Below are positions 4,345 to 42,888 of a DNA stretch of 64,000 nt, piece by piece (position 1 is the stretch's first letter; each line of letters opens with the position of its first letter). The DNA comes from Gallionellaceae bacterium UBA2239 (GTDB lineage: Bacteria; Pseudomonadota; Gammaproteobacteria; Burkholderiales; UBA9220). The DNA lies in NCBI GenBank assembly GCA_002347615.1, contig DDYH01000006.1:8573-72572 (forward strand), given 5' to 3'. Below the pieces are notes generated by a model that saw only the letters and a program-made list of their open reading frames with translations, ran no database searches and was not told where the DNA came from. Position numbers and translations under genes: made by a program.

Positions 4345-5148
4345 CTATCGTTGCTCCTTTGAGCGCGGTGTCTCCCGCCCTTCCGGGATGATGCCGAACA
4401 CGTACCACCAGCCGGTCAGGGGCGATTTGCGGAACAGGACCGTGCGCTGCTTGTCCCGGAACAGGTAGCGGGTGGACCCTTCCTCCTGGGCCTGCATGCG
4501 GCCGATGGCCCGGCTCAGGTCCGGGCTGAGCTTGGTCGGGTCGGTGAAGATCAGGTGGGGGTCCCAGTCCAGGCCGATCAGGGGGGCGGCGTCGAAGGAG
4601 TAGAAAATCATGGTCTGGTCCAGATCCATATCCTTCTCCAGGCGGGCGCTGAGCTGGTCCAGGTAGACCGAGGCGCCGAGCATCCCCGCCACGGATTTGT
4701 CCGGGCCCATCACCGGCACGGCGACGATGGCGACGCTTTTGCCGGTGGCCCTGCTCACCACCAGGTCGCCGATCACCGTCTTCCCGGCCAATAGCTTGGG
4801 GAAATAGGCGCGGCCCGACAGGTTGCCGGCGGCGCGGCCTTCCTGCACGCTCCAGTAGCTCCCGTCGGGCAGGGCGAACCAGTTGAGGGCGGGAACGTTC
4901 CGCCGCCCCACCTGGGCGAGGCCGGATTTGATCCGCTCCCAGTTTCCCGATTGGGCTTCCGGGGTGGCCGCCAATTCCCCCAGGTCGTCGGCCATCTTCT
5001 GCAGGTGGCCGTCGCTCAGGGAAACCAGGGAGGCGAGGGCTACCTTGCCGTCCACGGTGAAGGCGGGCTCCCCCCGGGCGAGCCCGGCGCCGAGGAAAAG
5101 GGTCAGTACGATAAGGAACAGGCGGGGAAGCAGCGGTGTGTTGGCCAT
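4345..5148 (-). CDS. Secreted periplasmic sensor-like protein (Cache/PDC-like fold)
   Basis: Signal peptide MANTPLLPRLFLIVLTLFLGAGLARG. Remainder resembles single Cache ligand-binding modules (..YFPKLLAGKTVIGDLVVSRATGKSVAIVAVPV..). No output domain. Confidence 0.55.
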   Translation of the reverse strand: MANTPLLPRLFLIVLTLFLGAGLARGEPAFTVDGKVALASLVSLSDGHLQKMADDLGELAATPEAQSGNWERIKSGLAQVGRRNVPALNWFALPDGSYWSVQEGRAAGNLSGRAYFPKLLAGKTVIGDLVVSRATGKSVAIVAVPVMGPDKSVAGMLGASVYLDQLSARLEKDMDLDQTMIFYSFDAAPLIGLDWDPHLIFTDPTKLSPDLSRAIGRMQAQEEGSTRYLFRDKQRTVLFRKSPLTGWWYVFGIIPEGRETPRSKEQR

Positions 5149-5163
5149 GACTTTTCTCCTCGG

Positions 5164-5604
5164 TTAGATGTCCAGCGGCCCCACGTGGGCCACCAGGGTG
5201 GGGTTTTCCCGCCACAGTTCCGGGTCGGCGTCCACGTAGAGCTCCAGTTCGTTGCCGTCCGGGTCCGCCAGGTAGAGGGACTGGGACACCCAATGGTCCG
5301 ACTGGCCGGTGACGGGGATTCCTTTCGCCAGCAGTTCCTCCTTCACCGCCTTGAGCTCCTCCAGGGAATCGCCCACCTTGAAGGCCAGGTGATAGAGGCC
5401 CAGCGCCCGGGGCGGCGGGTTGGGGGCGCCGGGGCCCAGTTCCAGCAGGGCCAGGTCGTGGTGGTTGGTGCCGAGGGAGAAGAACACCATGTGGTCCCGG
5501 TAGCGGGCCACTTCCCGCATTCCCAGCACGTCCCGGTAGAAGGGCACGGAGCGTTCCAGGTCGCGGACCTTGAGGGTGGCGTGGCCGAGGGCGCTGATGT
5601 GCAT
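5164..5604 (-). CDS. VOC-family (glyoxalase/extradiol dioxygenase-like) protein
   Basis: 146 aa. LGHATLKVRDLERSVPFYRDVLGM .. HHDLAL .. LYHLAFKV .. SLYLADPDGNELELY, a typical VOC beta-alpha-beta module. Confidence 0.85.
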   Translation of the reverse strand: MHISALGHATLKVRDLERSVPFYRDVLGMREVARYRDHMVFFSLGTNHHDLALLELGPGAPNPPPRALGLYHLAFKVGDSLEELKAVKEELLAKGIPVTGQSDHWVSQSLYLADPDGNELELYVDADPELWRENPTLVAHVGPLDI

Positions 5605-5710
5605 AGGCGATCCCTTTAGCGAATGAGCAAACCTTAATGAGCAAACCTAAGGCTAGACTGTGAGCATGGCTTTGACCAGCCTCACCGCGGGAACGAGAAA
5701 GGGAGAGACG

Positions 5711-6565
5711 ATGACAACAGGCCCGAGTTTGATCGTGCGCCCCATGGCGGAGGAAGAAGTGGCCTTCGCCGTGGACCAGGCGGCCCGGGAAGGATGGAAT
5801 CCGGGCCTGTTCGACGGCGGGGTGTTCTACCGTGCCGACCCCCGGGGATTTCTTTTGGCCGAACTGGAAGGCCGGCCGGTGGGCGCCATTTCGGCGGTGG
5901 CCTACCCCGGCGGATTCGGTTTCATCGGCTTCTATATCGTGCTGCCGGAGCACCGCGACAAAGGCTACGGCCTGGCCTTGTGGCAGGCCGCCATGGAGCG
6001 GCTCAAGGGCTGCAACGTGGGCCTGGACGGGGTGCTGGACCAGCAGGAGAACTACCGCAAATCCGGCTTTCATTTCGCCTACAGCAACATCCGCTTCGAA
6101 GGGGCCGGGGGCGGGACCCGGCCCTCCGATCCCTCCCTGGTGGATCTGGGCATCGTGCCCTTCGAGCAACTGATGGCCTACGACCGCCGCTTCTTCCCCG
6201 CCGAGCGGCGGCTGTTCCTCGACGGCTGGCTCGGCCTGCCCCAGTCCAGGGGCTGCGCCGTGGTGCGGGACGGCGTGCTGTCGGGCTATGGTGTGGCGCG
6301 GCGCTGCCGCAAAGGCTTCAAGGTCGGCCCCCTGTTCGCCGACGACCGGGTATCCGCCGAGGAAATCTACCGCGCCCTGGCCGCCTTCGCCGGCCCCGGC
6401 GAGCCGGTCTACCTGGACGTGCCCGAGGCCAACGCCGAGGCCATGGCCATGGCGGCGCGCTACGGCATGCGCCAGGTGTTCGGCACGGCGCGGATGTATA
6501 CCGGGCCGGCGCCGGACATCCACCTGGCCGGGGTGTACGGGGCCACCAGCTTCGAGCTCGGTTGA
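5711..6565 (+). CDS. GNAT-family N-acetyltransferase (YitH-like two-domain type)
   Basis: Start chosen at MTTGPSLIVRPMAEEEVAFAVDQAAREGWNPG. GNAT core FIGFYIVLPEHRDKGYGLALWQAAMERL. Confidence 0.8.
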   Translation: MTTGPSLIVRPMAEEEVAFAVDQAAREGWNPGLFDGGVFYRADPRGFLLAELEGRPVGAISAVAYPGGFGFIGFYIVLPEHRDKGYGLALWQAAMERLKGCNVGLDGVLDQQENYRKSGFHFAYSNIRFEGAGGGTRPSDPSLVDLGIVPFEQLMAYDRRFFPAERRLFLDGWLGLPQSRGCAVVRDGVLSGYGVARRCRKGFKVGPLFADDRVSAEEIYRALAAFAGPGEPVYLDVPEANAEAMAMAARYGMRQVFGTARMYTGPAPDIHLAGVYGATSFELG

Positions 6566-6738
6566 CAGCCCGTGGGCGGGTTTTTTTCGTACAATGTCAA
6601 TTTTAATCTGAAACTCGCGTAGCGAGCCCTCGTCCCCCTCGCCCGTTCCGCCGTGGTTGCCGCTTTGCGGCGGGCACCCGGCGAGAACACCCCTTGTGGG
6701 TGCGGGTGAGGGTAGGGGTGAGGGAAATGGGAGTCGGC

Positions 6739-7554
6739 ATGAAAATCGCGTTCATCGGCGGCGGCAATATGGCCAGCGCCCTCATCGGCGGACTCGTCGG
6801 CAAGGGCTTCGCCCCTGCCGACATCCGCGTGGTGGAAATCACCCCCGAGGCCCGGGAGCGGCTGCAGAGCCGCTTCGGCGTCGCCGCCTACGGCGAGATG
6901 GCCCCCGCGGTGGAGGGGGCGGACGCGGTGGTGCTGGCGGTGAAGCCCCAGCAGCTTTACCCGGTGGTGAAGGAGCTGGCGCCCTTGCTTTCGAACCAGC
7001 TGGTGGTGTCCATCGCCGCCGGGGTGCGGGCTTCGGACATCTCCCGCTGGCTGGGGGATTACCCCAAGGTGGCGCGGGCCATGCCCAACACGCCGTCCAT
7101 GGTGGGGGCCGGCATCAGCGGCCTCTACGCCATGCCCGGCCTGGGGGAGGGCGAGCGCAAGCAGGCCGAAACCATCCTCGCCGCGGTGGGCATGACCCTG
7201 TGGCTCCACGACGAATCCCAGATGGACGCCGTCACCGCCGTCTCCGGCAGCGGCCCGGCCTACGTCTTCTACTACCTGCAAGCCCTGCAGGAAGCGGCCC
7301 AGGAGCTGGGCTTCTCCAGCGCGGAAGGCCGCACCCTGGCCCTGGAAACCTTCGTCGGCGCCTGCAAGCTGGCGGCGGACAGCGGCGAGGACTTCGCCCT
7401 GCTGCGGGCCAAGGTGACCTCCAAGGGCGGCACCACCGAGGCCGCCATCCTCAGCAAGGAGGCCGCCGGGGTGCGCGCCGCCATCGTCCAGGGGGTGAAG
7501 GCGGCCCGCGCCCGCTCCGCCGAGCTGGCGGAAGAACTCGGCAAGGCGGAGTAG
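6739..7554 (+). CDS. proC: Pyrroline-5-carboxylate reductase
   Basis: MKIAFIGGGNMASALIGGL Rossmann start. Conserved ..VSIAAGV.., MPNTPSMVGAGISG, TSKGGTTEAAI. Confidence 0.95.
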   Translation: MKIAFIGGGNMASALIGGLVGKGFAPADIRVVEITPEARERLQSRFGVAAYGEMAPAVEGADAVVLAVKPQQLYPVVKELAPLLSNQLVVSIAAGVRASDISRWLGDYPKVARAMPNTPSMVGAGISGLYAMPGLGEGERKQAETILAAVGMTLWLHDESQMDAVTAVSGSGPAYVFYYLQALQEAAQELGFSSAEGRTLALETFVGACKLAADSGEDFALLRAKVTSKGGTTEAAILSKEAAGVRAAIVQGVKAARARSAELAEELGKAE

Positions 7555-7557
7555 GCG

Positions 7558-8136
7558 ATGCTGGCCCAAGCCCTGCAATTCATCATCGAATCGGTGTTCA
7601 ACCTGTTCGCCCTCGCTCTGCTGCTGCGCTTCCTGCTGCAATGGGTGCGGGCCTCCTTTCGCAACCCCTTCGCCCAGTTCCTGGTGGCCCTGACCAATTT
7701 CCTGGTGCTGCCTTTGCGCCGCGTGATCCCCGGCTTGGCCGGGCTGGACCTGGCCTCACTTTTCGCCGCCTGGCTGGTGGAGTTCCTGATGCTGCTGGCG
7801 GTCCTGGCGGTGAGCGGTTTCCCCTTGCTGGTGGCGGGCTGGGGCGTGGTGCCGGGGGTCATGCTGTGGGCGGTGGTGAAGCTGGTTTCCCTCAGCGTTT
7901 ACGTCCTGATGGGGGCGGTGCTGATCCAGGCCCTGCTGTCCTGGGTCAACCCCTACACCCCCCTGGCGCCGATGCTCGACGCCCTGGCCGGGCCGGTGCT
8001 GCGCCCGGTGCGCAGGCTGCTTCCCCCCATCGGCGGCGTGGACCTCTCGCCCCTGGTGGTGCTGCTGGCCCTGCAACTGGTGCTGATGCTGCCGGTGGCG
8101 TGGCTGGAGATGATGGTGATGGGGCTGTTCCGCTGA
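7558..8136 (+). CDS. yggT: YggT-family integral membrane protein
   Basis: 192 aa with two YGGT repeats (LLLRFLLQWV.. / ..VLIQALLSWVNPY). Conserved position after proC. Confidence 0.85.
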   Translation: MLAQALQFIIESVFNLFALALLLRFLLQWVRASFRNPFAQFLVALTNFLVLPLRRVIPGLAGLDLASLFAAWLVEFLMLLAVLAVSGFPLLVAGWGVVPGVMLWAVVKLVSLSVYVLMGAVLIQALLSWVNPYTPLAPMLDALAGPVLRPVRRLLPPIGGVDLSPLVVLLALQLVLMLPVAWLEMMVMGLFR

Positions 8137-10104: not shown

Positions 10105-13100
10105 GTGCTCAGGAAGATGCGTTATCGCCTGGCGTTGGATGTTGGCTCGACATCCATTGGCTGGTGCCTGATTCGACTGAATGCCGACGATGAGCCGATT
10201 GCCATTATCCGAATGGGGGTGCGCATATTTTCCGATGGGCGCAATCCCAAAGATGGCTCGTCCCTTGCCGTGACCCGCCGCAACGCCCGGCAAATGCGCC
10301 GTCGGCGGGATAGGTTGCTGAAACGCAAGGAACGGATGTTGTCTGCTTTGACCCGTCTCGGCTTCTTTCCTTTGGATGAGGCCAAGCGCCGCGAATTAGT
10401 GAGTCTCGATCCCTATGCCTTGCGTAAAAAAGGTCTGTATGAAGCGTTGAGCGGCCCCGAGTTTGCGCGGGCGTTGTTTCATATCAATCAACGACGCGGA
10501 TTCCTAAGTAATCGCAAGACGGACAGGAAAGACAGCGAAAGCGGGGCGCTTAAGAAGGCAATCAAAGGGCTGCGGGGAAAGCTGGCCGAGGAGGGATGCC
10601 GAACGCTGGGGGAATGGCTGGCTCGCCGCCATGAGCAGCGCCTGAGTGTACGCGCGCGCCTGCGGGGCAAGACGCAGAAAGAAAAGGCCTACGATTTCTA
10701 TGCCGACCGGGCAATGATCGAGCATGAATTCGACGCGCTTTGGGACCGGCAGGAAGCGCTAAATCCCGTCCTTTTCAATCCCGCCGCTCGTGATGAACTC
10801 AAAGACATCCTGCTTCATCAGCGCCGTCTCAGACCGGTTCGACCCGGGCGCTGCACCCTTCTGCCGGAAGAGGAGCGCGCGCCGCTGGCATTGCCCAGCA
10901 CCCAGCGTTTCCGTATCTATCAGGAGGTCAACAATCTGAGGGTTCTTTCGCCGGCGGATATGTGCGAAAAGCCGTTGACGCTGGATCAGAGAAACCGTGT
11001 CGTCGAATTGCTTGAGCGGCAGGGCGAGGTCCGTTTTACCAGGATACTTAAAGAGTTGAACCTGTCTGGCGCCACCAAATTCAACCTGGAAGACATCAAG
11101 CGCGATCGGCTCAAAGGAAACTCCACCTCCGCTGTTCTTGCCAAGGAGAATTGCTTTGGCGAGCGGTGGTACGGTTTTGATGGGGCAGTGCAGGACGAAA
11201 TCGTGGACCGGTTGCTGAACGATGCCAGCAAGTCGGCCTTGGTGAATTGGTTGCAGGAACGGACGGGCGTAGACGAGGCGTGTGCCGAAACCATCGCCAA
11301 CGTGAGCTTGCCGGAAGGGTATGGCAACTTGAGTCGCAAGGCGCTGTCCCGGATTCTTCCCGAACTTGCCGCGGATGTGACGGTGTATTCCGATGCGGTT
11401 GTCCGAGCGGGATTTGACAGCCACAGCGCGCTGTCTTCCGCGGAGCAAACGGGCGAAATTTTGGGTGAATTGCCTTACTATGGCATTCCCCTACGCCGCC
11501 ACGTCGCCTTTGCCAAAGACCATCCGCGCAACGACGAGGAGCGTTATGGGAAAATCGCCAACCCGACGGTGCATATCGGCTTGAACGAATTGCGCAAGGT
11601 GGTAAACGCCCTCATTCGACGGTATGGCCATCCCAGCGAAGTGATTGTGGAGGTGGCGCGAGAGCTCAAACTGGGGCGTGAACGAAAGCTGGAAATCCAG
11701 CGCGAACAGAAGGAACGGCAAGACCTCAACGACAAACAGGTGGCCGAAGCCTGCGCCGTGCTCGGTTGGACCCCAGCCAACCTTGACCGCGCCAAGCGGC
11801 GCGAACTTTCGCAGAAAATGCAGTTGTGGGTGGAGCTCAACCCCAAGAACGTGGCTGACCGGCAGTGTCCCTATACCGGCGAACAAATCGGCATTGAGCG
11901 GCTTTTGTCGAGCGAGGTGGAGATTGAGCACATCCTTCCTTATTCCGCCACTCTTGACGACAGCATGAACAACAAGACGGTTTCCCTGCGCCGCGCCAAT
12001 CGCGACAAAGGAAACCGGACTCCCTATGAGGCCTTCGGCGTGCAGCCGATACCCGGCTACGACTACCAAGCCATTCTTCTGCGTGCCTCAAATATGCCCA
12101 GGGAGAAGGCCAAGCGTTTCGCACCGGATGGCTATCAGCGTTGGCTGAAGGAGGACAAGGATTTCCTCGCCCGGGCACTCAACGATACCGCCTATCTATC
12201 CCGCATTGCCAAGGAATACCTCTCCCTGATTTGCCCGCCCAATAAGGTACGTGTTATCCCGGGAAGAATGACGGCGCTGTTGCGGGGTAAGTTTGGGTTG
12301 AATCAGCTCCTGTCCGGTTCCGAGGTGAAAAACCGTGACGACCATCGTCACCACGCGCTGGATGCGGCGGTGATCGGTGTTACGGACCAAGGGCTGTTGC
12401 AGCGTTTCGCCAAAGCGAGCGCAAGCGCGCGGGAGCGGCAGCTTGATCGGCTTGTGGAGGAAATGCCTCTGCCTTGGCCTAGCTATCGGGAACACGCGGA
12501 GCGGGCATTGGGCGGCATCGTCATCAGCCACAAACCGGACCACGGGTATCAGGGTGCCATGCACGAAGAGACGGCCTGGGGCCTATGCGGCGACGGCGTG
12601 GCGAGCAGGCGCGTGCGCCTGGAGGACGGGGGTCCCCGCCAGCGCGAATTCAGGAATAAGAACCTGGTCGAGATCGACAGTACCCGTGATCCAAACCGCC
12701 ACGGCATGGACGAGCATGGCCGGCCACGGCACTACAAGGGCTATGTGGGCGGCAGCAACTATTGCATTGAAATTTGGCGGGGTGAGAAAGGAAAGTGGGA
12801 TGGGGACGTGGTATCCACATTCCAGGCTTACCAATTAATAAGACAATGGGGGGAAATCGAGGGAGCGAGACGGCTTCGCGACCTAAGCTTCAGCCAGTCC
12901 GGTAGGCCCTTGGTGATGCGGCTGATGATCGATGATTTGGTAAGACTGCAGGTGGATGGGAAAGAAAGGACGATGCGCGTGGCCGTAATAAGCGGCAATG
13001 GCCAGATTTTTATGTGCGACCATCATGAGGCGAACGTGGACGCCCGGAATCGGGATAAGCAAAATCCCTTTGCGTACATCTCTAAATTGCCGGGTTCTCT

Positions 13101-13173
13101 TCAGAAAGCAAAGGGCCGGAGGGTTACCGTGTCCGAAATTGGCGAACTGCGCGATCCGGGCTTCAAGGGATAA
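10105..13173 (+). CDS. cas9: Cas9, type II-C (1022 aa from GTG 10105; alternative ATG at 10117)
   Basis: RuvC-I YRLALDVGSTSIGW, Arg-rich bridge helix RRNARQMRRRRDRLLKRK, RuvC-II VIVEVARELK, HNH EIEHILPYS..DDSMNNKTVSLRRANRDKGNRTPYEAF, RuvC-III DDHRHHALDAAVIG. No csn2 or cas4 nearby. Confidence 0.97.
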   Translation: MLRKMRYRLALDVGSTSIGWCLIRLNADDEPIAIIRMGVRIFSDGRNPKDGSSLAVTRRNARQMRRRRDRLLKRKERMLSALTRLGFFPLDEAKRRELVSLDPYALRKKGLYEALSGPEFARALFHINQRRGFLSNRKTDRKDSESGALKKAIKGLRGKLAEEGCRTLGEWLARRHEQRLSVRARLRGKTQKEKAYDFYADRAMIEHEFDALWDRQEALNPVLFNPAARDELKDILLHQRRLRPVRPGRCTLLPEEERAPLALPSTQRFRIYQEVNNLRVLSPADMCEKPLTLDQRNRVVELLERQGEVRFTRILKELNLSGATKFNLEDIKRDRLKGNSTSAVLAKENCFGERWYGFDGAVQDEIVDRLLNDASKSALVNWLQERTGVDEACAETIANVSLPEGYGNLSRKALSRILPELAADVTVYSDAVVRAGFDSHSALSSAEQTGEILGELPYYGIPLRRHVAFAKDHPRNDEERYGKIANPTVHIGLNELRKVVNALIRRYGHPSEVIVEVARELKLGRERKLEIQREQKERQDLNDKQVAEACAVLGWTPANLDRAKRRELSQKMQLWVELNPKNVADRQCPYTGEQIGIERLLSSEVEIEHILPYSATLDDSMNNKTVSLRRANRDKGNRTPYEAFGVQPIPGYDYQAILLRASNMPREKAKRFAPDGYQRWLKEDKDFLARALNDTAYLSRIAKEYLSLICPPNKVRVIPGRMTALLRGKFGLNQLLSGSEVKNRDDHRHHALDAAVIGVTDQGLLQRFAKASASARERQLDRLVEEMPLPWPSYREHAERALGGIVISHKPDHGYQGAMHEETAWGLCGDGVASRRVRLEDGGPRQREFRNKNLVEIDSTRDPNRHGMDEHGRPRHYKGYVGGSNYCIEIWRGEKGKWDGDVVSTFQAYQLIRQWGEIEGARRLRDLSFSQSGRPLVMRLMIDDLVRLQVDGKERTMRVAVISGNGQIFMCDHHEANVDARNRDKQNPFAYISKLPGSLQKAKGRRVTVSEIGELRDPGFKG

Positions 13174-13178
13174 TTGAA

Positions 13179-14108
13179 ATGATCGGCCGCATCGTTGAAG
13201 TGGCCGATGACCGACGGCATCTCTTTGCCTCCCGCGGCTTCATGGTCGTGCAGGATACGGAAGGCGAGCGCAAGGAGTTGGGGCAGGTTCCCCTGGACGA
13301 CATCGCAGCCGTTATCGCCAATGCCCACGGCCTGAGCTACACCAACAACCTGCTGGTGGCCCTCGCGGAACGCGGCGCGCCTTTCGTTCTGTGCGCAGCC
13401 AACCACAACGCTATCGGCATGCTGTGGCCGATAGACGGGAATTACCAGCAGGCCAAACGGTTCGATGCCCAATTGGCGGCGACCCGTCCCACGCACAAAC
13501 GGCTGTGGGCTGAAGTGGTGCGGAGCAAACTGCAACAGCAGGCCGCCGCTTTGGAGGCGGCGGGCGCCAACTCCATACCTCTTTCCGCCCTGGCGGCCAA
13601 GGTTCGTTCCGGCGACTCCGGCAACCTCGAAGCCCAAGGAGCCCGGCGCTACTGGGCGTTGTTGTTCGGGGGCGACTTCAGGCGCGACCAGAATGGGGAC
13701 GGGATCAACGCCCTGCTCAATTATGGCTACACCGTGCTGCGTGCCGCCATGGCACGAGCCATCGTTGCTGCCGGGCTTCATCCCACCCTGGGCCTTCACC
13801 ATGCCAATGAAAGCAACGCCATGCGCTTGGTGGATGACCTGATGGAGCCGTTTCGCCCAGTAATCGATTTGCACGTATGGCAATTGGGCAGAACCGGGGA
13901 GGCGGCAGTTACACCCGACACCAAGCGAACCCTCGTGCGGTCACTTTATGACGACATGCAAACCACTTCCGGCGCGACTCCGGTCATGGTGTGCATGCAG
14001 CGGTTGGCGGTGTCCCTGGCTCAGGTATACATGGACCAGAGAGACAAACTGGACCTTCCCTTGCCGGGGTTGCCGTTGTCCATGGCGGCCAGCCTGGCCG
14101 ATGACTGA
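13179..14108 (+). CDS. cas1: Cas1 (type II)
   Basis: 309 aa, 5 nt after the cas9 stop. ..NALLNYGYTVLRAAMARAIVAAGLHPTLGLHHANESNAMRLVDDLMEPFRP.. is the Cas1 catalytic core. Confidence 0.95.
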   Translation: MIGRIVEVADDRRHLFASRGFMVVQDTEGERKELGQVPLDDIAAVIANAHGLSYTNNLLVALAERGAPFVLCAANHNAIGMLWPIDGNYQQAKRFDAQLAATRPTHKRLWAEVVRSKLQQQAAALEAAGANSIPLSALAAKVRSGDSGNLEAQGARRYWALLFGGDFRRDQNGDGINALLNYGYTVLRAAMARAIVAAGLHPTLGLHHANESNAMRLVDDLMEPFRPVIDLHVWQLGRTGEAAVTPDTKRTLVRSLYDDMQTTSGATPVMVCMQRLAVSLAQVYMDQRDKLDLPLPGLPLSMAASLADD

Positions 14109-14117
14109 GTTGTCGCC

Positions 14118-14444
14118 ATGCTCAGCGGATATCGTCTCATGTGGGTAGCCGTCATGTTCGATCTTCCCGTGGTGGAAAAGAAAGAGCGCAAAGCCGCAAC
14201 CGGATTCCGCAATGCGTTGCTGGACATGGGATTCGAGATGGCCCAGTTTTCGGTATACATGCGTTTCTGCACCAGCCAGGCGCAAATCGATACCTACTGT
14301 AGGCGGGTGGAGGAAACCTTGCCTGACGGCGGGAAAGTCAATATTCTGGTTTTCACCGACAAGCAATATGAGCGCATTATTTCTTTCCATGGGAAAGCCA
14401 AACAGGACCCGAAAAAATCACCGGACCAATTTGATTTGTTCTGA
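14118..14444 (+). CDS. cas2: Cas2 (type II)
   Basis: 108 aa. MWVAVMFDLPV..ERKAATGFRNALLDMGFEMAQFSVYMRF.. is the Cas2 ferredoxin-like fold pattern. Confidence 0.9.
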   Translation: MLSGYRLMWVAVMFDLPVVEKKERKAATGFRNALLDMGFEMAQFSVYMRFCTSQAQIDTYCRRVEETLPDGGKVNILVFTDKQYERIISFHGKAKQDPKKSPDQFDLF

Positions 14445-14465
14445 GTCGGTGCGCCTTTTTTCGAT

Positions 14466-14504
14466 TCGAAAAAATAAGAAACCCACTGACGAATCAGTGG
14501 GTTT
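14466..14504 (-). terminator. Minus-strand Rho-independent terminator between the array and cas2
   Basis: AAACCCACTGA (14479-14489), 4-nt loop, TCAGTGGGTTT (14494-14504). Read on the minus strand the hairpin is followed by CUUAUUUUUU. Confidence 0.8.
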
Positions 14505-15176
14505 CAGAACTGCGATTCTACTCTATCGGGATATGAGCTCTGGCCGGAACGCCTGCCGTTCGCGCTCGTTCAGGTCCTCTATTCTACTCTATCGGGATAT
14601 GAGCTCTGGCCGGAACTGCGTTGTGGTATCCGCCGCTGATCGTGATATTCTACTCTATCGGGATATGAGCTCTGGCCGGAACTTTGCTCGCAAGCTCAAC
14701 ACCACCGCCGGCATTCTACTCTATCGGGATATGAGCTCTGGCCGGAACGCGGCCGGCTCCCAGGTGAAGCCGGCTGATATTCTACTCTATCGGGATATGA
14801 GCTCTGGCCGGAACTGTATAATACACCTTACTACTTGAACGCACATTCTACTCTATCGGGATATGAGCTCTGGCCGGAACTTGGTCGCCACGGTCATTTT
14901 TGGCGTGCTTATTCTACTCTATCGGGATATGAGCTCTGGCCGGAACTCAAAGAGGATGCAATTCACCGCTACATCGATTCTACTCTATCGGGATATGAGC
15001 TCTGGCCGGAACAAGGACGGAAGCGCGCAGCAGAAGTCCAATATTCTACTCTATCGGGATATGAGCTCTGGCCGGAACCCCATGAGCTGTATCCCGCCTA
15101 TGACACTCATTCTACTCTATCGGGATATGAGCTCTGGCCGGAACGCATCACAGGTAACACGGCATTCCGCTTTTAT

Positions 15177-15349
15177 CCCAGATTATCCATTAGGCGGCGC
15201 TTCGCGCCTACGCGAGCGCTGGCGGCCGGTTTGCGGCCATTTTCGCCGCTTGTTCGTCGTCCATGGAATAACCATGAACTCCTCGCAAGCAACGAAACTG
15301 TCTCGCAACCCACCTCGCCATCATCTCGCGTCCTAATGGATAATCTGGG
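15177..15349 (+). mobile_element. MITE-like element, copy 2, inserted at the spacer 10 / repeat 11 junction (TSD TTTAT)
   Basis: Same TIRs as copy 1. TTTAT at 15172-15176 and 15350-15354. Excising the element plus one TSD restores ..CCGCTTTT|ATTCTACTC.. (30-nt spacer plus intact repeat). Confidence 0.95.
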
Positions 15350-16781
15350 TTTATTCTACTCTATCGGGATATGAGCTCTGGCCGGAACTTGCAACGTCAC
15401 CTACTGTTGCCCCCGACTATTCTACTCTATCGGGATATGAGCTCTGGCCGGAACGCGGTCACTGCGGCGGTCGCGCTTACCTTGGATTCTACTCTATCGG
15501 GATATGAGCTCTGGCCGGAACTCGCGGCGCTCCATGACGTATTCGCGGTACATTCTACTCTATCGGGATATGAGCTCTGGCCGGAACCACTTACCCAGTT
15601 GTGTAAAATATTTTTAGATTCTACTCTATCGGGATATGAGCTCTGGCCGGAACCTGGCCCGCGCGTTCAGCTTTTCGGGCAGCATTCTACTCTATCGGGA
15701 TATGAGCTCTGGCCGGAACTTGGGGGCGCATGGCTGACCAGTGGCGCAAATTCTACTCTATCGGGATATGAGCTCTGGCCGGAACCCACCAGGAGTCATT
15801 ATGCCGCCATTCTTAATTCTACTCTATCGGGATATGAGCTCTGGCCGGAACGCATCGACGAGCTGATCCGCGCCCGCGACGAATTCTACTCTATCGGGAT
15901 ATGAGCTCTGGCCGGAACGCGCCTGGCTCCCAGGTGAAGCCGGCTGATATTCTACTCTATCGGGATATGAGCTCTGGCCGGAACCCTTTGGGTTGCGTGT
16001 TGGTGCGTTCAAGTATTCTACTCTATCGGGATATGAGCTCTGGCCGGAACAGTCCGACACGCTGGCCCGCCTGATCGAATATTCTACTCTATCGGGATAT
16101 GAGCTCTGGCCGGAACGCTGTTGGAGCGTCGGCGCGACCGCCGGCCATTCTACTCTATCGGGATATGAGCTCTGGCCGGAACTTCAGTAAGTTCAATATC
16201 TCTTGGAAGCTAATTCTACTCTATCGGGATATGAGCTCTGGCCGGAACGGTGCCAAAGGACTCATGCAGGTCTTACCATTCTACTCTATCGGGATATGAG
16301 CTCTGGCCGGAACAGGACCACCCCGCCGTGGCGGAACTGCGCAATTCTACTCTATCGGGATATGAGCTCTGGCCGGAACCCGGAACCGCACTCGGTCCAC
16401 AGTGGGATCATTCTACTCTATCGGGATATGAGCTCTGGCCGGAACAGGTGTGCTTCGCTCAAGCTGACCGCTCCCATTCTACTCTATCGGGATATGAGCT
16501 CTGGCCGGAACTGACCAGGTGCGCGCCTATGTCGAAGCGCAATTCTACTCTATCGGGATATGAGCTCTGGCCGGAACCTGGCTTGGGTTTCGGGGCGGGT
16601 ACTATGGTTATTCTACTCTATCGGGATATGAGCTCTGGCCGGAACGCGGTGAGGAGGGGTGATCGTGGTGGCATGATTCTACTCTATCGGGATATGAGCT
16701 CTGGCCGGAACCGGTAACGGCGAACGGCAAACGTAGATAGCCCGCCGTCCTTGGAGTAGTACAACCCGGAAAGCGCCGGGT

Positions 16782-17102: not shown

Positions 17103-17741
17103 TCAACGCAAAAATCCCCCGTCCTTCAGCTCCTCCGCCACCTTCTTCGCCAGCTCGACCTGCCCGGCTTCATTGGGGTGGAGGGCGTCGAGCTTCAGTT
17201 CCTTGTCCGACAGCACGTCGGGGATGGCGTCCTCGATCAGGAATACTTTCCGCGCCTCGGCCAGTTCCGGGTAGACCTCCGCCGCCGACAGGCTGCCGAT
17301 GGCGGCGCCCACTACGCTTGGCCGGGGGGTGGCCAGGAGGATGGGGACGGCGCCGGCGTTGCGGGCCATGTTTATCATTTCCTCCAGGTTGGCGCGGGTT
17401 TCGGCCGGGGGCACTTTGCGCAGCATGTCGTTGCCCCCCAGTTCGATCATCACCGCCGCCGGCTTGTGCTCTTCCAATAGGCCGGGCAGGCGTTCCCGGC
17501 CGCCGGCGGTGGTGTCGCCGCTGACGCCGGCGTTGACCACGTTCCAGCCGGTGGCGGCGGCGAGCTTGGCGGGCCAGGCTTGTTCGGGGGTGAGGCCGTA
17601 GCCGGCGGAGATGCTGTCCCCCAGCACCAGGACCGTGGCGCCGGGGGGCAGGGCCTGCTGCTTGGGGGCGGAGCAGGCGGCGAGGGCGAGGAGGAGGGCG
17701 GCGAGCCAGAGGAGGTGGCGGTGGGGGGGGAGTGTTTTCAT
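17103..17741 (-). CDS. SGNH/GDSL hydrolase (TesA-like arylesterase/lysophospholipase), lipoprotein-type signal
   Basis: Start at MKTLPPHRHLLWLAALLLALAAC. Block I VLVLGDSISAGYG, block II NAGVSGDT, block III ELGGND, block V D.LHPN. Confidence 0.85.
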   Translation of the reverse strand: MKTLPPHRHLLWLAALLLALAACSAPKQQALPPGATVLVLGDSISAGYGLTPEQAWPAKLAAATGWNVVNAGVSGDTTAGGRERLPGLLEEHKPAAVMIELGGNDMLRKVPPAETRANLEEMINMARNAGAVPILLATPRPSVVGAAIGSLSAAEVYPELAEARKVFLIEDAIPDVLSDKELKLDALHPNEAGQVELAKKVAEELKDGGFLR

Positions 17742-36909: not shown

Positions 36910-37002
36910 GTTGCAGGAATGAGTCTTCCAGTTAGAATGGCCGAAAGATAATAAGGTTATGCTGCGACATCATAAGGCCAGTTAATAAATGAAAGCTCCA
37001 CC

Positions 37003-38235
37003 ATGACCCAGCTTAAGCGAACGAAGCCTGCTCGAATTGAATACCTTAAGGTAGAGAATTACCGCGCACTTAAACAAGTCGAGTTGAAAAACATAACTCC
37101 TCTGACGGTATTGCTCGGACCCAATGGTAGCGGGAAGTCCACAATATTTGATGTCTTCGCTTTTCTTTCTGAGTGCTTTGAGTCTGGCCTGCGTCGTGCC
37201 TGGGATCGACGGGGGCGAGCAAAGGAATTGAAGACACGTGGCAGTGATGGCCCAGTAGTCATTGAGATCAAATACAAAGAGCCCGAATTTCCCGTCATCA
37301 CTTACCATTTGGCGGTAGATGAGCATAGGGGCGCGCCGGTTGTGGTGGAGGAATGGCTGCAATGGCGACGGGGGAAAAATGGAAAACCGTTCCGCTTTCT
37401 CGATTATCGGGAGGGTCAGGGACGTGCCATTAGTGGCGAGTTACCGGACGAACAGGACACCCGCCTGGAAATACCTTTGAAGTCGCCGGACCTCATTGCC
37501 GCGAATGCACTTGGCCAGTTTGCGGATCATCCCAGGGTAGCTGCCCTACGGGATTTTATTACTGGGTGGTATGTTTCTTATTTTTCCGTGGATGATACTC
37601 GAGGTCAGCCGGAAGCGGGGCCACAGGAAAGGCTGTCTCGTACGGGAGACAATATTGCCAACGTTATCCAATATCTTGCCGAGCAGCATTCCGACAGGTT
37701 GGAGCATATATTCGAGGTGTTGCGGACACGGGTTCCCCGTGTGGAACGCGTGTTGGCCGAGGTGATGCCGGACAGCCGCTTGCTGTTGCAGATCAAGGAC
37801 GCTCCCTTCGAACACCCGGTGCTGGCGCGCTTCGCATCCGATGGCACGCTTAAAATGTTGGCCTATCTCGTGCTTTTGTATGACCCTGATCCTCCGTCGT
37901 TTATCGGGATCGAGGAGCCGGAAAATTTTCTACACCCCCGTCTGCTGGCCGAATTGGCGGAAGAGTGCCGTGCTGCTTCGGAGCGAGGGCAGCTGCTGGT
38001 AACCACGCATTCTCCTTTTTTCGTCAACGCGTTGCGCCCGGAAGAGGTCAGAGTGTTATACCGTGATGAAGCGGGGTATACCCAAACTGTCCGCGCAGTG
38101 GACATTCAGGGAATACCCGAATTCATGGATGCAGGAGCTTCATTGGGACATCTTTGGTTGGAGGGCCGATTTGGCATGGGAGATCCCCTCGTCAACCAAG
38201 GTGCACCCAACCCAACCAAGAGAGGCACGGCATGA
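37003..38235 (+). CDS. ABC-type (AAA_15/AAA_21, RecF/OLD-like) ATPase
   Basis: Walker [13 protein letters not shown]-loop region, signature-like [11 protein letters not shown], Walker [16 protein letters not shown]-loop VTTHSP. Visibly lower G+C than the flanks. Confidence 0.8.
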
Positions 38236-38846
38236 AAGCCAGCCATTTGGAGATATTGGTTGAAGAACCATCTATGGAAGCTTTTCTAAGGGCTATGTTG
38301 CCTAGGTTGCTTGGGGATGAGGCAAGTTTCGAGATATATCCATACCAGTGCAAGGATGATTTGCTGAGAAAGTTGCCGGACCGGTTGCGTGGTTATGCGA
38401 ATTGGTTGCCAGAAACGTGGCGCATCGTTGTTGTTGTAGATCGTGATGATGACGACTGTGCAATGTTGAAACAAAATCTGGAACAGATGGCCGCAAACGC
38501 AGGGTTGCGTACCCGTACAGCTGACAACGGTCTGGCTTGGCAGGTGGTGAACCGCATCGCTGTTGAGGAACTGGAAGCCTGGTATTTCGGTGATTGGGAG
38601 GCGGTGCGGCAGGTTTACCCTAAGGTAAGTGAAACTGTTCCTAAAAAGGAGGGTTTTCGCGATCCTGACGCAATTGGCGGCGGCACCTGGGAGGCCTTTG
38701 AAAGACTTTTGCAACGGGCAGGATATTTCGAGAATGGGTTACGCAAAACTGAGGCAGCTCGAGCTCTTGGTCAGCGCATTGATCCCGCCCGCAGTTGTTC
38801 TCGTAGCTTCCAAGTATTTCGAGATGCTCTCTTGGAAGCGGTCTGA
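38232..38846 (+). CDS. DUF4276-like protein (Toprim-like E..DxD pattern), translationally coupled to the ATPase
   Basis: ATGA overlap at 38232-38235. [54 protein letters not shown] resemble DUF4276 family members as I remember them. Confidence 0.7.
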
Positions 38847-38873
38847 TCTGCTCTCGGCCTTTATAATAGGGCT

Positions 38874-39153
38874 ATGGATTTTTCCGCAATTGCCCCCCAC
38901 TACGAACGCAACGCCACCGTGCAGAAATCCGCGGCGGAAGTGCTGATCCGGCTCGCCGCCCTGCACGGCATGGAAGGCATCCTCGACCTGGGCTGCGGCC
39001 CCGGCCACCTCACCGCCCGCCTGCGGGAGCTGACCAGCGGCCGGGTGGCCGGGCGAACCCTCGCCGGGCATGGTGGAGCAGGCCCGGCGGCAGTACGGCG
39101 AGCGGGACATCGTTTTCAGCCTCGGCACCGACCGGGACCTGAACGAGGTGTGA
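38874..39153 (+). pseudogene. Class I SAM-dependent methyltransferase, frameshifted and 3'-truncated
   Basis: MDFSAIAPHYERNATVQKSAAEVL..ILDLGCGPGHLT (motif I), then a frame change near 39050 (..EPSPGMVEQARRQYGERDIVF.. continues in another frame) and a stop at 39151-39153 after about 93 codons. Confidence 0.65.
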
Positions 39154-39248
39154 AATAAAACGGGTCAGCTCCGCTTTTGTCCGGCGGCTATCTTCTTCGC
39201 ATCTTTAGCCCCCATTTGCTATTCGCAAATAGCAAATGCATTTACCCT

Positions 39249-39652
39249 TCAGTGGGCGGGAGATAAGGCGGCGACGGCGATGTCGGTCTTGCCGAAATCG
39301 TTGCCTTTGAACAGCAGCGGTTCGTTGCGTTGGCGGGCCAGGGCGTAGGCGCAGCAGTCGCCGAAATTCAGCCCCGCCGGGTGCCGCCCCTTGCCGAAGC
39401 GGCTGTAGGCTTCCCTTGCCAGCCGGTATTGGGATTCATCCAGGGCCACAATCTCGAACTGGGCGGCGGCGAGCAGTTCGTCCAGAACCGCCACGCCTTC
39501 GGGGCCTTTGCGGGTTTCGATCACGATGGCCGCTTCCAGGGCGGAAACGGCGCTGATGTGCCGCGTGGGGGAGGCGGCGAGAGTGGCGGCGAAAACCTCG
39601 GCATCCGCCTCGTTCAACAGAATGGCGATGATGCCGAGGTGTCGATGACCAT
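39249..39652 (-). pseudogene. vapC: PIN-domain toxin VapC with a 1-nt deletion at codon 7
   Basis: ATG GTC ATC GAC ACC TCG GC|A TCA TCG.. gives MVIDTSASSPFC*. The rest of the PIN domain (IIAILLNEADAEVF..GDCCAYALA..LLFKGNDF) continues in the -1 frame. Confidence 0.75.
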
Positions 39653-39655
39653 GGG

Positions 39656-39910
39656 TTACTGGAACAGGCCGGTTTCGTCGTGGCCCAGGATTTCGTCGGC
39701 GCTGCGCCGGTCCCGGTCGGGAAGGGCCTTGCAGCGTTCGGCGATGCGCATCAGGGTGTCGGCGGTGACGGTTGCCGCTTGTTTCTCCCGCAGGTTGTCC
39801 AGGCGCGCTTCGAGGGCATGGACCACCGCCTCCGGGATGCTCTCGCCGGTTTTCCTGGCGAGTTCGTTCGCCAGCGTTTCGGCTTTGGGGTCGGTGATGT
39901 GCAATGCCAT
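39656..39910 (-). CDS. vapB: VapB/FitA-like antitoxin
   Basis: 84 aa. MALHITDPKAETLANELARKTGESIPEAVVHALEARL. Stop codon is 4 nt from the vapC ATG. Confidence 0.8.
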   Translation of the reverse strand: MALHITDPKAETLANELARKTGESIPEAVVHALEARLDNLREKQAATVTADTLMRIAERCKALPDRDRRSADEILGHDETGLFQ

Positions 39911-40001
39911 GGTGTCTTCCTGATTGCGCGGGGGATATGATGGAAAAAGTATATGCGTTAACCTTCACGGCTTCAATTCATTACCCCTTGTGCCAGCCTT
40001 A

Positions 40002-40271
40002 ATGTCCGGACTCATCCTCTACGCCACCGAAGACGGCCAAGCCAGCATCAAGCTTCGGGCGGAGGAGGGCACGGTTTGGCTGTCCCGGCAGGAAATGGCC
40101 GATCTGTTCGCCACCGGAAAGCCCAATATCAACCAGCACGTCAAGCACATCCTGGCCGAAGGCGAGCAGCCCCAGGCAACCATTGAGGAATACTTGACGG
40201 TTCAAAACGAAGGCGGGAGAACGGTATTGTTCAGGATCGGCAGCGAAAAAAATCCCGGAGTGCAGCAATGA
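40002..40271 (+). pseudogene. RhuM-family protein, N-terminal remnant only
   Basis: MSGLILYATEDGQASIKLRAEEGTVWLSRQEMADLFATGKPNINQHVKHILAEGE matches the RhuM N-terminus. Similarity ends after about 75 aa, and the stop overlaps the slyX ATG. Confidence 0.65.
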
Positions 40272-40489
40272 CGAACGAAGACCGCCTGATCGAAATCGAA
40301 ACCAAAATCGCCTTCCAGGAAGACCTGGTCCAGGAGCTCAACAAGATCGTCTACGAGCAGCAGAGGAAGATCGACCGCCTGGAAGCCCTCTGCAATTCCC
40401 TGGTTGACCACATCAAAGACCTGTCGATGGCAGTGGCCGAGGGGAACGTTGCGGGTAGTGCCGCCAGCGAGCGGCCGCCCCATTATTAA
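40268..40489 (+). CDS. slyX: SlyX-family protein
   Basis: 73 aa. RLIEIETKIAFQEDLVQELNKIVYEQQRKIDRLE coiled coil typical of SlyX. Confidence 0.85.
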   Translation: MTNEDRLIEIETKIAFQEDLVQELNKIVYEQQRKIDRLEALCNSLVDHIKDLSMAVAEGNVAGSAASERPPHY

Positions 40490-40572
40490 TTGGCAGAATG
40501 AACAGCCAGAGGTGAGCGTTGAGGTAATTATTTGTTCGTATTAATAAGCCATTACCGTGTATTGTTCATTAT

Positions 40573-40600
40573 TTGACATTGTTCACTGTGGGTGTACGAT
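40573..40600 (+). promoter_or_regulatory. Putative sigma70 promoter of the AbiEi-like operon, flanked by ATTGTTCA / TGAACAA boxes
   Basis: TTGACA (40573-40578), 16 nt, TACGAT (40595-40600). ATTGTTCA at 40561 and 40578. Inverted TGAACAA at 40610 and TGAACA at 40499. Confidence 0.5.
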
Positions 40601-40627
40601 AAACAAAAATGAACAAATGGGATTGAG

Positions 40628-41662
40628 ATGAAAACCGGGGCCAAGCTTCTTGCTGTTCGTGACGAGACGGACGTTCTTGATGCCGCGTTGACCGGGTTGC
40701 GCGCCATGGGTTTGCAGACGGACCTGCTTGCAGGGCAGGGACAAGGTCGGGTGCGCTTGCGCTACGGCAATGAAGTGATTACCCGCGTCGTCGAGGTCAG
40801 GCGCGCGGTTACGCCGGTGAACCTGGGTGTGGTTGCCCACCAGTTGGCGCAGTTGACTGAGCAGCCACTGCTAGTGACGGAATATGTGACGCCGCCCATG
40901 GCGGAGCGGCTGCGGGTGTTGGGGCTCCAGTTCGTAGACGCGGCAGGTAACGCCTATATCCAGGAACTGCCATTGCTGGTGTGGGTTGTGGGACGCAGGC
41001 CGGAGGAGAAGCTTCGTGCCGGGCGAGGAACGCGTGCTTTCCAGACGGGTGGGCTGAAAGTGGTGTTTGCCCTGCTGTGCTGGCCGGAGTTGGCCGACGC
41101 GCCTTACCGAGACATTGCCGGGGCGGCTGGAGTGGCTCTTGGGACGGTGGGGTGGGTGCTGAGGGATATCAAGGAGGCCGGGTTTCTGCTCGACATCGGC
41201 AAGCGGAGGCGGAAGCTGGTGAACCGCCGCCGGCTGTTGGACCAATGGGTGGAGGCGTATACGCGGCAGCTTCGGCCCAGGCTGCCGCTCAGGCGCTTCC
41301 GGGCGAGCGGGAATGACTGGTGGAAAGGCGCCAATGCGACACCTTTGGACGGCGTCTATTGGGGTGGAGAAACCGCAGCGGCCATGTTGACGGCCTATCT
41401 CAAGCCGGCGGTGGCGACGGTCTATTTTCGGGATGCCGAAGCTCTGACCGAATTGCTTACCAAGTTCAGACTGAAAAATGACCCCAAAGGCGACGTGGAA
41501 ATCCGGCCGGCCTTCTGGCACTTCGAGGTGACGGAGCACCCTGGCCTGGTGCCTCCCCTTCTGGTGTACGCCGATTTGCTGGCGACCGGGGACGACCGCA
41601 ATATCGATACCGCCAGGATGATCTATGACGAGCACCTCGCTCGACTTGTCGAGCCGGCCTGA
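40628..41662 (+). CDS. AbiEi-like wHTH regulator (putative type IV TA antitoxin)
   Basis: 344 aa. Central wHTH-like PYRDIAGAAGVALGTVGWVLRDIKEAGFL. Overlaps the downstream nucleotidyltransferase gene by 38 nt. The family call is by resemblance, not by a profile search. Confidence 0.55.
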   Translation: MKTGAKLLAVRDETDVLDAALTGLRAMGLQTDLLAGQGQGRVRLRYGNEVITRVVEVRRAVTPVNLGVVAHQLAQLTEQPLLVTEYVTPPMAERLRVLGLQFVDAAGNAYIQELPLLVWVVGRRPEEKLRAGRGTRAFQTGGLKVVFALLCWPELADAPYRDIAGAAGVALGTVGWVLRDIKEAGFLLDIGKRRRKLVNRRRLLDQWVEAYTRQLRPRLPLRRFRASGNDWWKGANATPLDGVYWGGETAAAMLTAYLKPAVATVYFRDAEALTELLTKFRLKNDPKGDVEIRPAFWHFEVTEHPGLVPPLLVYADLLATGDDRNIDTARMIYDEHLARLVEPA

Positions 41663-42553
41663 TCTCGTGCCAGTGGCGGAACTGGCGGGAGAGGTTACGT
41701 CCGTTGCCACGGCGTTGGACATCCCAGTTTTCATGGTTGGCGCTATGGCACGGGATTTGATCCTCGCTTACGGCTACGGTATCGATACCAGCCGCCGGAC
41801 GGAGGATATGGACTGGGCCATGGCGGTGGAAAGCTGGGAACAGTTCGAGGCGCTTAAGGACCGGTTGCTGGCATCGGGCCGCTTCGCGGCGCGAAAAGAA
41901 GCTCATCGCCTCAAATACCGGGAAATCATGATTGTGGACTTGGTTCCTTTCGGCGTCATCGAAGACCGAAACGGGGTTATCTCCTGGCCGCCGGAGCACG
42001 AAATCAACATGAGCGTTCTGGGTTTTCGCGAGGCATATCATAGGAGTGTGGTTGTGCAACTTCCTGGCGGGGTGTCGGTCCGATTGGCCTGCCTGCCTGC
42101 CTGCCTGCCTGCCTGCCGGCGTTGGCCATGCTCAAGTTGCTGGCTTGGGATGACCGGAAGCGTGAGTTCCCAAAGAAGGATGTTCAGGACTTTACGCTGA
42201 TTGTGCGTCACTACGTAGATGCCGGGAATCAGGATCGTTTGTACGGGCAATTTGTTGCGCTGCTGGAGGAAGAGGGTTTCGACTACGAACTTGTCGGGGC
42301 CTGGATGCTGGGGCGCGACATGGCAGAAATGTTCGGGGAAGCGGCACGGAAGTCCGCTTTCAAAATTCTGGAACGAGAGGCGAATGTGCGGGGTGCTTTG
42401 GCATTTGTCAGCGCCATGCCAATGGATGCGGAAAAAGGATTGGCCCTGTTGGAAAAGGTGCTGAAGGGGTTGAAGGAGGGAGCCGATCCCGAAAGCGCGG
42501 TGATGGAAGCTGCCGCGAGGACATCAAATAGAGAGTTGAGTCTAAAACCATGA
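41625..42553 (+). pseudogene. Pol-beta-fold nucleotidyltransferase (AbiEii-like putative toxin) split by a frameshift in a (GCCT)7 tract
   Basis: N-terminal ORF 41625..42200 has VGAMARD..TEDMDWAM (G-x..DxD NTase motif). The C-terminal part continues in ORF 42122..42553 (LAMLKLLAWDDRKREF..). The frames switch exactly at 42087-42114. Confidence 0.75.
42087..42114. repeat. Tetranucleotide microsatellite (GCCT)7
   Basis: Seven perfect GCCT units counted directly (42087-42114), followed by GCC. Confidence 0.98.
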
Positions 42554-42888
42554 AATTCAGCCAATTGCCCATCGGCCAGCGCTTCGAGCTGGACGGCGCG
42601 GTCTTCGTCAAAACCAGCCCCATGATGGCTGCCAAGGAGGGGGGCGGGGAGTCCCGCTTCATGGCCCGCTACGTGGTGGTGAAGGTACTGGGGGGCGAAC
42701 CCGCGCCCGCCAGGCCGAAGGGGCCGCGGATGGTGGAGGAAGCGGTGGTGGCGGCCGCATTCGATGGGTTCCATTCCCGTTGCCGGGAGGTGCTGGCGCG
42801 GGAGCTGCCCGCCGAGAAGCGGGAGGCGGCCCTGGCCGAACTGGATGAGGGCCGGCGTGGCTTTCTCGATGCCCTTTCCCGGGGTTGA
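42550..42888 (+). CDS. Hypothetical protein (112 aa)
   Basis: The ATG overlaps the NTase stop (ATGA at 42550-42553). High-G+C codon usage. No recognisable motifs. Confidence 0.5.
   Translation: MKFSQLPIGQRFELDGAVFVKTSPMMAAKEGGGESRFMARYVVVKVLGGEPAPARPKGPRMVEEAVVAAAFDGFHSRCREVLARELPAEKREAALAELDEGRRGFLDALSRG

Follow-up and report, generated by a model that had tools for sequence, protein, structure and literature searches.

A length-variable GCCT tract in an AbiEii-family nucleotidyltransferase gene is a candidate phase-variable switch in an environmental betaproteobacterium

Results and discussion

An AbiE-like gene pair between slyX and a core gene

The stretch of DNA analysed here (64,000 nucleotides, hereafter the window) has a GC content of 64.7%. 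At about 40486..42537 on the + strand, between slyX and a core gene for a 112 aa protein (42550..42888, +), it carries a 2.05 kb segment with a GC content of 58.6% and two genes. In a relative that is about 95-96% identical (L026) this site is empty and slyX directly precedes the 112 aa gene, from which we conclude that the two-gene module is an accessory insertion, the 112 aa gene lying outside it.

The first gene of the module (40628..41662, +) encodes a 344 aa putative regulator/antitoxin of the AbiEi_2/COG4861 type (PF09952, E=1.6e-39) and overlaps the start of the second, a nucleotidyltransferase (NTase) gene, by 38 nucleotides. The promoter-like region upstream of it (40494..40618, +) includes a near-consensus TTGACA-16-TACGAT at 40573-40600, set among TGTTCA/TGAACA inverted repeats. 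AbiEi is known to bind inverted repeats (PMC3985639), and by analogy only we infer a candidate AbiEi-type operator, which would be autoregulatory.

The NTase gene lies in two reading frames, with its 5' part at 41625..42200 (+, frame 3) and its 3' part at 42115..42553 (+, frame 2; listed as an open reading frame at 42122-42553). At the level of sequence, the pair has what characterizes an AbiE module: a DUF1814/AbiEii NTase with motifs I-IV and, upstream, an AbiEi-family gene that overlaps it. The same order, with an AbiEi_2 gene ahead of the NTase gene and the same 38-nucleotide overlap, recurs at two distant homologous loci that we examined (L034 and L037), where the neighbouring genes encode Dcm/Vsr, a type I restriction-modification (R-M) system and a canonical AbiEi_3/AbiEii pair. 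Searches of NCBIfam gave no match for either gene, and PADLOC assigned the pair to no defence system, reporting only a marginal PDC-M21B match for the NTase.

The hslU-slyX interval adjoining the module varies between strains; among its contents are HEC-01 (AAA_15 + DUF4276), a PDC-S05-like gene and a pair resembling VapBC. At a distance of 25 kb upstream there is a Cas9/Cas1 locus that includes CRISPR arrays. The HslU protein is 92% identical to that of a Sulfuricellaceae metagenome-assembled genome and 85-86% identical to that of Sulfuricella, which places the host near the Sulfuricellaceae.

The number of GCCT units sets the reading frame of the NTase

Seven perfect GCCT units occupy positions 42087-42114 (+), exactly where the initial annotation had placed them, and are followed by GCC at 42115-42117, so that the whole variable element spans 42087..42117. 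Tandem Repeats Finder describes the tract as 7.8 copies of period 4 with 100% matches. In a regular-expression scan of the 64 kb window it was the sole non-homopolymer tetranucleotide repeat with at least four units, and the expected count of a 5-unit pattern was 0.00 over 100 dinucleotide-preserving shuffles.

With seven units, the frame-3 part of the gene yields a 191 aa truncated product ending in ..ACLPACLPACRRWPCSS..LR, directly ahead of the stop codon. This truncated protein, already on record as P0121, keeps motif I (G39) and motif II (D61, D63) and is without motifs III and IV, which are carried by the frame-2 part (KLLAWDDR at 42134-42157 and KDVQD at 42176-42190, both +). The two overlapping open reading frames described in the initial annotation, 41625..42200 in frame 3 and 42122..42553 in frame 2, were both recovered, and its prediction that 8, 5 or 2 units would fuse them was borne out when we rebuilt the allele in silico for every unit number from 1 to 12. 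Alleles with 2, 5, 8 and 11 units read ..ACLPALAMLKLLAWDDRKREF.. and give single open reading frames of 302, 306, 310 and 314 aa, respectively, in which the tract codes for (ACLP)n. All remaining unit numbers give truncation at 170-195 aa, ahead of motifs III (KLxAaxxR) and IV (+DxxD). The gene is therefore in frame (ON) at 3k+2 units and out of frame (OFF) otherwise: a perfect repeat within a coding region whose unit number determines the reading frame, as in contingency loci. The ATG of the downstream 112 aa gene overlaps the NTase stop codon (ATGA), an arrangement that might couple translation of the 112 aa protein to the ON frame.

The restored protein belongs to the AbiEii family

The product of the 2-unit allele (P0001) matches the Pfam AbiEii family (PF08843) weakly, with a score of 26.1 bits where the cut-off is 22.5; 58/58 aligned homologues match the same family (DUF1814), in agreement with the earlier assignment as an AbiEii-like NTase. 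The 8-unit construct made in silico scores 20.4 bits, a drop caused by the insert. Restoring the frame reveals hundreds of full-length homologues of 278-297 aa, with identities of at most 58% outside the protein's own cluster. Both halves of the gene align end to end with single homologues in this size range and thus belong to one protein family, as had been proposed; no homologue was found in a split form.

Compared with homologues of about 58% identity, the 2-unit allele aligns without gaps (RLACLPALAMLKLLAW against QVVSLPALALLKLLAW), and two units therefore represent the ancestral protein length. It keeps all 22 of the 22 invariant alignment columns, among them G39, D61, D63, K164, W168, D179 and D182. 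Under the definitions of the DUF1814 motifs given by Dy et al. 2014 (PMC3985639), G39 corresponds to motif I (hG[GS]) and D61 and D63 to motif II (DhD), together the G..DxD motif pointed out in the initial annotation; motif III, defined by a K in a hydrophobic helix, is K164-L-L-A-W-D-D-R171 and fits the COG4849-specific KLxAaxxR, and motif IV is K178-D-V-Q-D182, which fits +DxxD.

No repeat was present at the tract site in the 120 homologous proteins listed or in 20 homologous DNA loci, which makes the tract a peculiarity of this lineage. A scan of metagenomes with a nine-sequence alignment gave 13 distant loci, all of them free of a repeat. Because an AbiEi_2 gene, a type that we take to correspond to COG4861, is combined here with an NTase that has a COG4849-type motif III, the pair probably falls, among AbiE-like modules, in the COG4861-COG4849 branch.

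The tract encodes a loop ahead of motif III

An AlphaFold2 model of the 2-unit protein has a pLDDT of 94.9 and a pTM of 0.90. The best matches to this model in a fold search of solved structures were ANT(2'')-Ia, M. tuberculosis MenT1 and CCA-adding enzymes, all of which have the Pol-beta-type NTase fold; a search of solved structures by sequence returned MenT1 alone (E=0.027). In the 2-unit model the residues encoded by the tract, A155-P158, lie between a strand (150-154) and the helix (157-171) that bears the invariant K164, so that the tract codes for a strand-to-helix loop six residues ahead of motif III (KLLAWDDR).

The model of the 8-unit protein retains the fold (pLDDT 92.9), with the insert forming a longer loop and an N-terminal extension of the K164 helix at a local pLDDT of 71-83. 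Given its location at a strand-to-helix loop, the (ACLP)n insert is probably tolerated by the NTase, and in-frame changes of unit number may tune the loop beside the catalytic lysine. In the Streptococcus agalactiae AbiEii, substitutions K173A and R180A in motif III and D192A in motif IV each abolish toxicity (PMC3985639). As the OFF products end before both of these motifs, they are, by analogy with that protein, most likely inactive.

Near-identical contigs differ in tract length

We retrieved the locus from about a dozen independent assemblies (JGI, ENA and Logan), finding allele contigs through those that encode proteins of the NTase cluster and the AbiEi gene, and then counting the units. 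The 90%-identity protein cluster of the 191 aa fragment also includes proteins of 302 aa and 306 aa, together with two C-terminal fragments of 141 aa. The comparison of orthologous loci proposed in the initial annotation yielded 2, 5, 7, 9 and 10 units in near-identical contigs. The ON frame is found with 2 units (L001; Logan ERR12036780) and with 5 units (L002-L005 and L028; Logan SRR28386953/55/56/61 and ERR14064752). The OFF frame is found with 7 units in the window itself (JGI 3300002821, = L006), in L007 (ENA ERZ27315059) and in L009 (ERZ27315023), with 9 units in L010 (JGI 2209111015) and with 10 units in L008 (ENA ERZ25039601). One further contig (L033; Logan DRR706891) breaks off within the tract, which has at least 7.5 units there. 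The window, L006 and L027 are one JGI contig, and L007 is possibly a re-assembly of related data. All carriers form one species-level lineage, a betaproteobacterium akin to Sulfuricellaceae and known from metagenomes of wastewater and tailings-type sites; the source of JGI 3300002821 is a petrochemical wastewater pond in Alberta.

The flanks of these alleles are 99.9-100% identical, or 99.5-100% as given by BLAST, and the tract is the sole gap in each alignment, over lengths of up to 20 kb. Tabulated SNPs show that the 2-unit allele L001 and the 10-unit allele L008 have identical flanks across 4.7 kb, that the 7-unit allele L009 and the 9-unit allele L010 have one haplotype in common, and that two separate haplotypes carry the 7-unit allele; a fifth haplotype is that of L033. 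At least four changes of tract length have accumulated against 15 substitutions and no other indel in about 13.4 kb of flank, which by a rough estimate places tract change 1000-fold or more above the per-site substitution rate. The G8 homopolymers in the same alignments are invariant, and the tract is perfect and uninterrupted in every allele.

The NTase gene itself differs among the alleles by only two substitutions, both conservative (L132M and an M-to-I change), and none of the alleles compared has a second inactivating lesion such as a stop codon or an indel. Gene calling in independent assemblies gave each ON allele as one uninterrupted gene, of 302 aa and 306 aa respectively. The abiEi_2 gene is identical or nearly so in all alleles and, together with its promoter, is unaffected by the tract, in line with the earlier expectation that the upstream regulator would stay intact. 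Close strains of this lineage are hence polymorphic in unit number, with ON and OFF frames both represented and the gene otherwise intact, the pattern of a contingency locus. Since the tract is not fixed at seven units, both frames exist and no further inactivating mutation has arisen, the candidate phase-variable switch put forward in the initial annotation gains support from the allele series.

The predicted 8- and 11-unit ON proteins had no exact match in a collection of 15 billion proteins, and exact look-up of the 3-, 4-, 6-, 9- and 10-unit OFF fragments gave no match either; OFF fragments are often not called as genes, so that a failure to find them says little. An exact pattern of left flank plus tract found no match in the genome-contig or metagenome-contig collections, from both of which the lineage is missing.

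A proposed slippage switch and its alternatives

Judging from sequence comparison, a DNA-level slippage switch in this AbiEii-family NTase gene is the reading that we hold with good, if incomplete, confidence. The tract would be a hypermutable simple-sequence repeat in which slipped-strand mispairing adds or removes GCCT units, each gain or loss shifting the NTase frame so that 3k+2 units would give the ON state and other numbers the OFF state. With the switch placed in the effector gene rather than in the regulator/antitoxin gene, both directions of switching would be safe for the cell, and cells would come to differ, heritably yet reversibly, in whether an AbiE-type toxin-antitoxin or abortive-infection module is ON or OFF. 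Relative to the tracts measured in Haemophilus (by De Bolle in 2000), which reportedly have 17-38 units, tracts of 5-10 units are short, and switching may therefore be slow.

That such a switch has an adaptive, defence-related role is a more tentative proposition, possible but falling somewhat short of an even chance. Equally tentative is the fuller form of this idea, an evolved contingency locus through which a free-living, GC-rich bacterium might bet-hedge on an Abi/toxin-antitoxin NTase by switching the effector stochastically while the regulator/antitoxin stays constant.

The main rival to adaptive phase variation, although in our judgement a rather unlikely one, is that the microsatellite drifts neutrally within an accessory gene which the cell can do without. 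On this view a proto-repeat present by chance, GCCTGCCTGCC, would have expanded and its length would since have wandered without selection; the OFF alleles would be early pseudogenes, and there would be no evolved switch. The physical mechanism would be the same as in the slippage switch, and the two accounts differ only on adaptiveness. Several observations fit drift. ON alleles make up 2/5 of the observed lengths against 1 in 3 by chance and so are not enriched, and alleles with 8 or 11 units were not found. The module is accessory, being missing from the relative that is about 95-96% identical, and the lack of a similar repeat elsewhere in the 64 kb gives no hint that the genome as a whole has a set of phase-variable genes; nor does the site hold a repeat in the homologous proteins listed or the 20 homologous loci. 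Such drift is, however, poorly reconciled with a gene that carries a second lesion in no allele and keeps all of its invariant residues, or with a tract that is free of interruptions throughout. Moreover, ON and OFF lengths occur on the same haplotype, which implies that inactivation was very recent or has been reversed.

Three further explanations for the 7-unit allele or for the series as a whole were considered and rejected as unlikely. One is recoding: a -1 shift inside the tract would join both frames, and if the ribosome made that shift, or if transcription slipped on the repeat, the 7-unit allele might still give the complete protein. We regard this as very unlikely: neither a slippery heptamer of the form X XXY YYZ nor an obvious stimulatory element is seen in the sequence, the variation exists at the level of DNA and natural in-frame alleles make recoding unnecessary, and, with the 9-unit allele calling for a shift of +1 instead of -1, no single mechanism rescues all OFF alleles. 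Just as improbable is a functional split gene, in which the N-terminal fragment and a C-terminal fragment translated separately from TTG 42122 or ATG 42128 would reassemble into an active enzyme. A 141 aa C-terminal open reading frame is indeed called by several annotation pipelines, but neither start is preceded by a Shine-Dalgarno-like sequence, the break would fall six residues ahead of the motif III helix in what is modelled as a tightly packed fold, and no split homologue was found. Least probable of all is that the unit-number differences are low-complexity errors of sequencing or assembly, for although assemblers struggle at the tract (one Logan contig, L033, breaks within it) and the sampling is partly redundant (the window, L006 and L027 being one contig, and L007 perhaps re-assembling related data), the differences are all exact multiples of 4 nucleotides and are the sole indels in alignments of up to 20 kb. 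In addition, five Logan samples share the 5-unit allele, the 7-unit allele stands on two SNP haplotypes, JGI, ENA and Logan assemblies all contribute alleles, and the G8 homopolymers stay constant in the same alignments.

Comparison with known systems

The gene pair resembles the AbiE type IV toxin-antitoxin/abortive-infection systems (AbiEi-AbiEii; Dy et al. 2014) in its upstream AbiEi_2-type gene and overlapping DUF1814/AbiEii NTase, in motifs I-IV with a COG4849-type motif III (KLxAaxxR), in the inverted-repeat promoter upstream and in its setting near R-M, CRISPR and candidate defence genes. The M. tuberculosis MenA2-MenT2 pair has the same COG4861-type partner as the pair described here, and MenT2, the only DUF1814 NTase with such a partner to have been tested, is non-toxic (PMC7450476). 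In the COG4861-COG4849 branch, the NTase is accordingly a putative toxin; its part in phage defence is likewise putative. What sets the present locus apart is its intragenic repeat and the phase variation that this would bring, neither of which our searches of the literature found for an AbiE, MenT or other toxin-antitoxin NTase.

The tract itself resembles the contingency loci of Haemophilus, Neisseria and Moraxella (type III R-M mod and lic), with which it shares a perfect coding repeat of 4 nucleotides, an ON/OFF state given by the number of units modulo 3, lengths that vary between strains which are nearly identical, the absence of other damage to the gene and a plausible role in phage conflict. 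The host, in contrast, is a free-living environmental betaproteobacterium of about 65% GC rather than a host-adapted pathogen with a small genome, and the tracts are short (2-10 units). The tract also lies in the middle of the gene, whereas many classical loci have theirs near the 5' end; its ON phases alter a loop next to the active site as well; and no second repeat of its kind occurs in the 64 kb window.

In Streptomyces coelicolor, the Pgl/BREX system is phase-variable by means of a poly-G tract in pglX. That system and the locus described here both involve repeat-mediated ON/OFF variation of a phage-defence gene (here a putative one) in a GC-rich environmental bacterium. They differ in that Pgl/BREX combines a homopolymer with a BREX-type methyltransferase, and the present locus a tetranucleotide with the NTase of a toxin-antitoxin/abortive-infection pair.

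Implications

In host-adapted pathogens, repeat-driven phase variation of surface and R-M genes is textbook knowledge. Targeted searches of the literature did not find it for AbiE, MenT or any other toxin-antitoxin or abortive-infection effector, and a 2025 centenary review of phase variation is silent on both classes of gene. Mechanism and gene family are each familiar; what appears to be new is that they come together in a free-living bacterium with a GC-rich genome.

If the tract is indeed an evolved contingency locus, this would be the first repeat-driven phase-variable effector of an Abi/toxin-antitoxin system, and the phase-variable gene sets of uncultured bacteria would be readable from allele series in public metagenomes. 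Cross-assembly comparison within large public collections can in this way reveal hypermutable loci of uncultured environmental bacteria, and the natural series described here (2, 5, 7, 9 and 10 units) is directly clonable for experiments. Located in the effector gene of an AbiE-type pair, such a switch would also touch on the costs and benefits, at the level of the population, of altruistic-suicide defences and of toxin-antitoxin 'addiction'.

Length variation of the GCCT tract

The window contains three G8 homopolymer runs, at 17723, 26749 and 48578, of which the last showed no length variation across the contigs of other strains L006-L008. Unlike this run, the GCCT tract within the AbiEii-family nucleotidyltransferase (NTase) gene varies in length. 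A contig from Logan DRR706891 (L033), which carries a fifth SNP haplotype, ends within the GCCT tract after 7.5 units (1913-1954), possibly because the tract is longer than the assembler's k-mer or because lengths are mixed in the sample.

Genomic context and homologous modules

Candidate defence genes are abundant between hslU and slyX (36910-40267), an interval that varies from strain to strain in comparison with L001, L008, L009, L026 and L033. The window encodes HEC-01 A/B here (AAA_15 gene, 37003-38235; DUF4276 gene, 38232-38846), followed by a VapBC-like pair on the minus strand (39249-39910) and an 89 aa PDC-S05-like gene (40002-40271). Other haplotypes differ from the window to the left of 39152 or 40193, and L026, a relative lacking the abiEi-NTase module, has methyltransferase, TPM and NERD genes in place of the window's set. 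Elsewhere in the window, a type II CRISPR-Cas locus (10105-16711) comprises Cas9 (10105-13173), Cas1 (13179-14108) and then 36 nt repeats that fall into two blocks, one at 14515-15146 and the other at 15353-16711, with a repeat-free stretch of about 200 bp between them.

In a distant locus, L034, the homologous AbiEi_2-NTase pair and genes for Dcm and Vsr are flanked by a full gyrB on one side and a duplicate 191 aa gyrB 3' fragment on the other (regions 2138-2713 and 5057-7558), an arrangement which suggests that an island inserted at the 3' end of gyrB and duplicated its target. In another, L037 (1-8864), the homologous pair lies within a type I R-M locus and adjoins a canonical AbiEi_3/AbiEii pair, thus placing two distinct AbiE-type modules side by side.

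Regulation and downstream genes

Upstream of abiEi, six TGTTCA/TGAACA half-sites are arranged as inverted repeats (40494-40618) and enclose a promoter-like site, TTGACA-16-TACGAT, together forming a candidate autoregulatory operator. At the other end of the module, the NTase stop overlaps the start codon of a core 112 aa gene (42550-42888) in an ATGA, and in the relative without the module this gene directly follows slyX. Searches of Pfam, NCBIfam and PADLOC returned no matches to it. Whether the NTase is ON or OFF could influence translation of the 112 aa gene or have polar effects on the MFS transporter and glycerate kinase genes further downstream.
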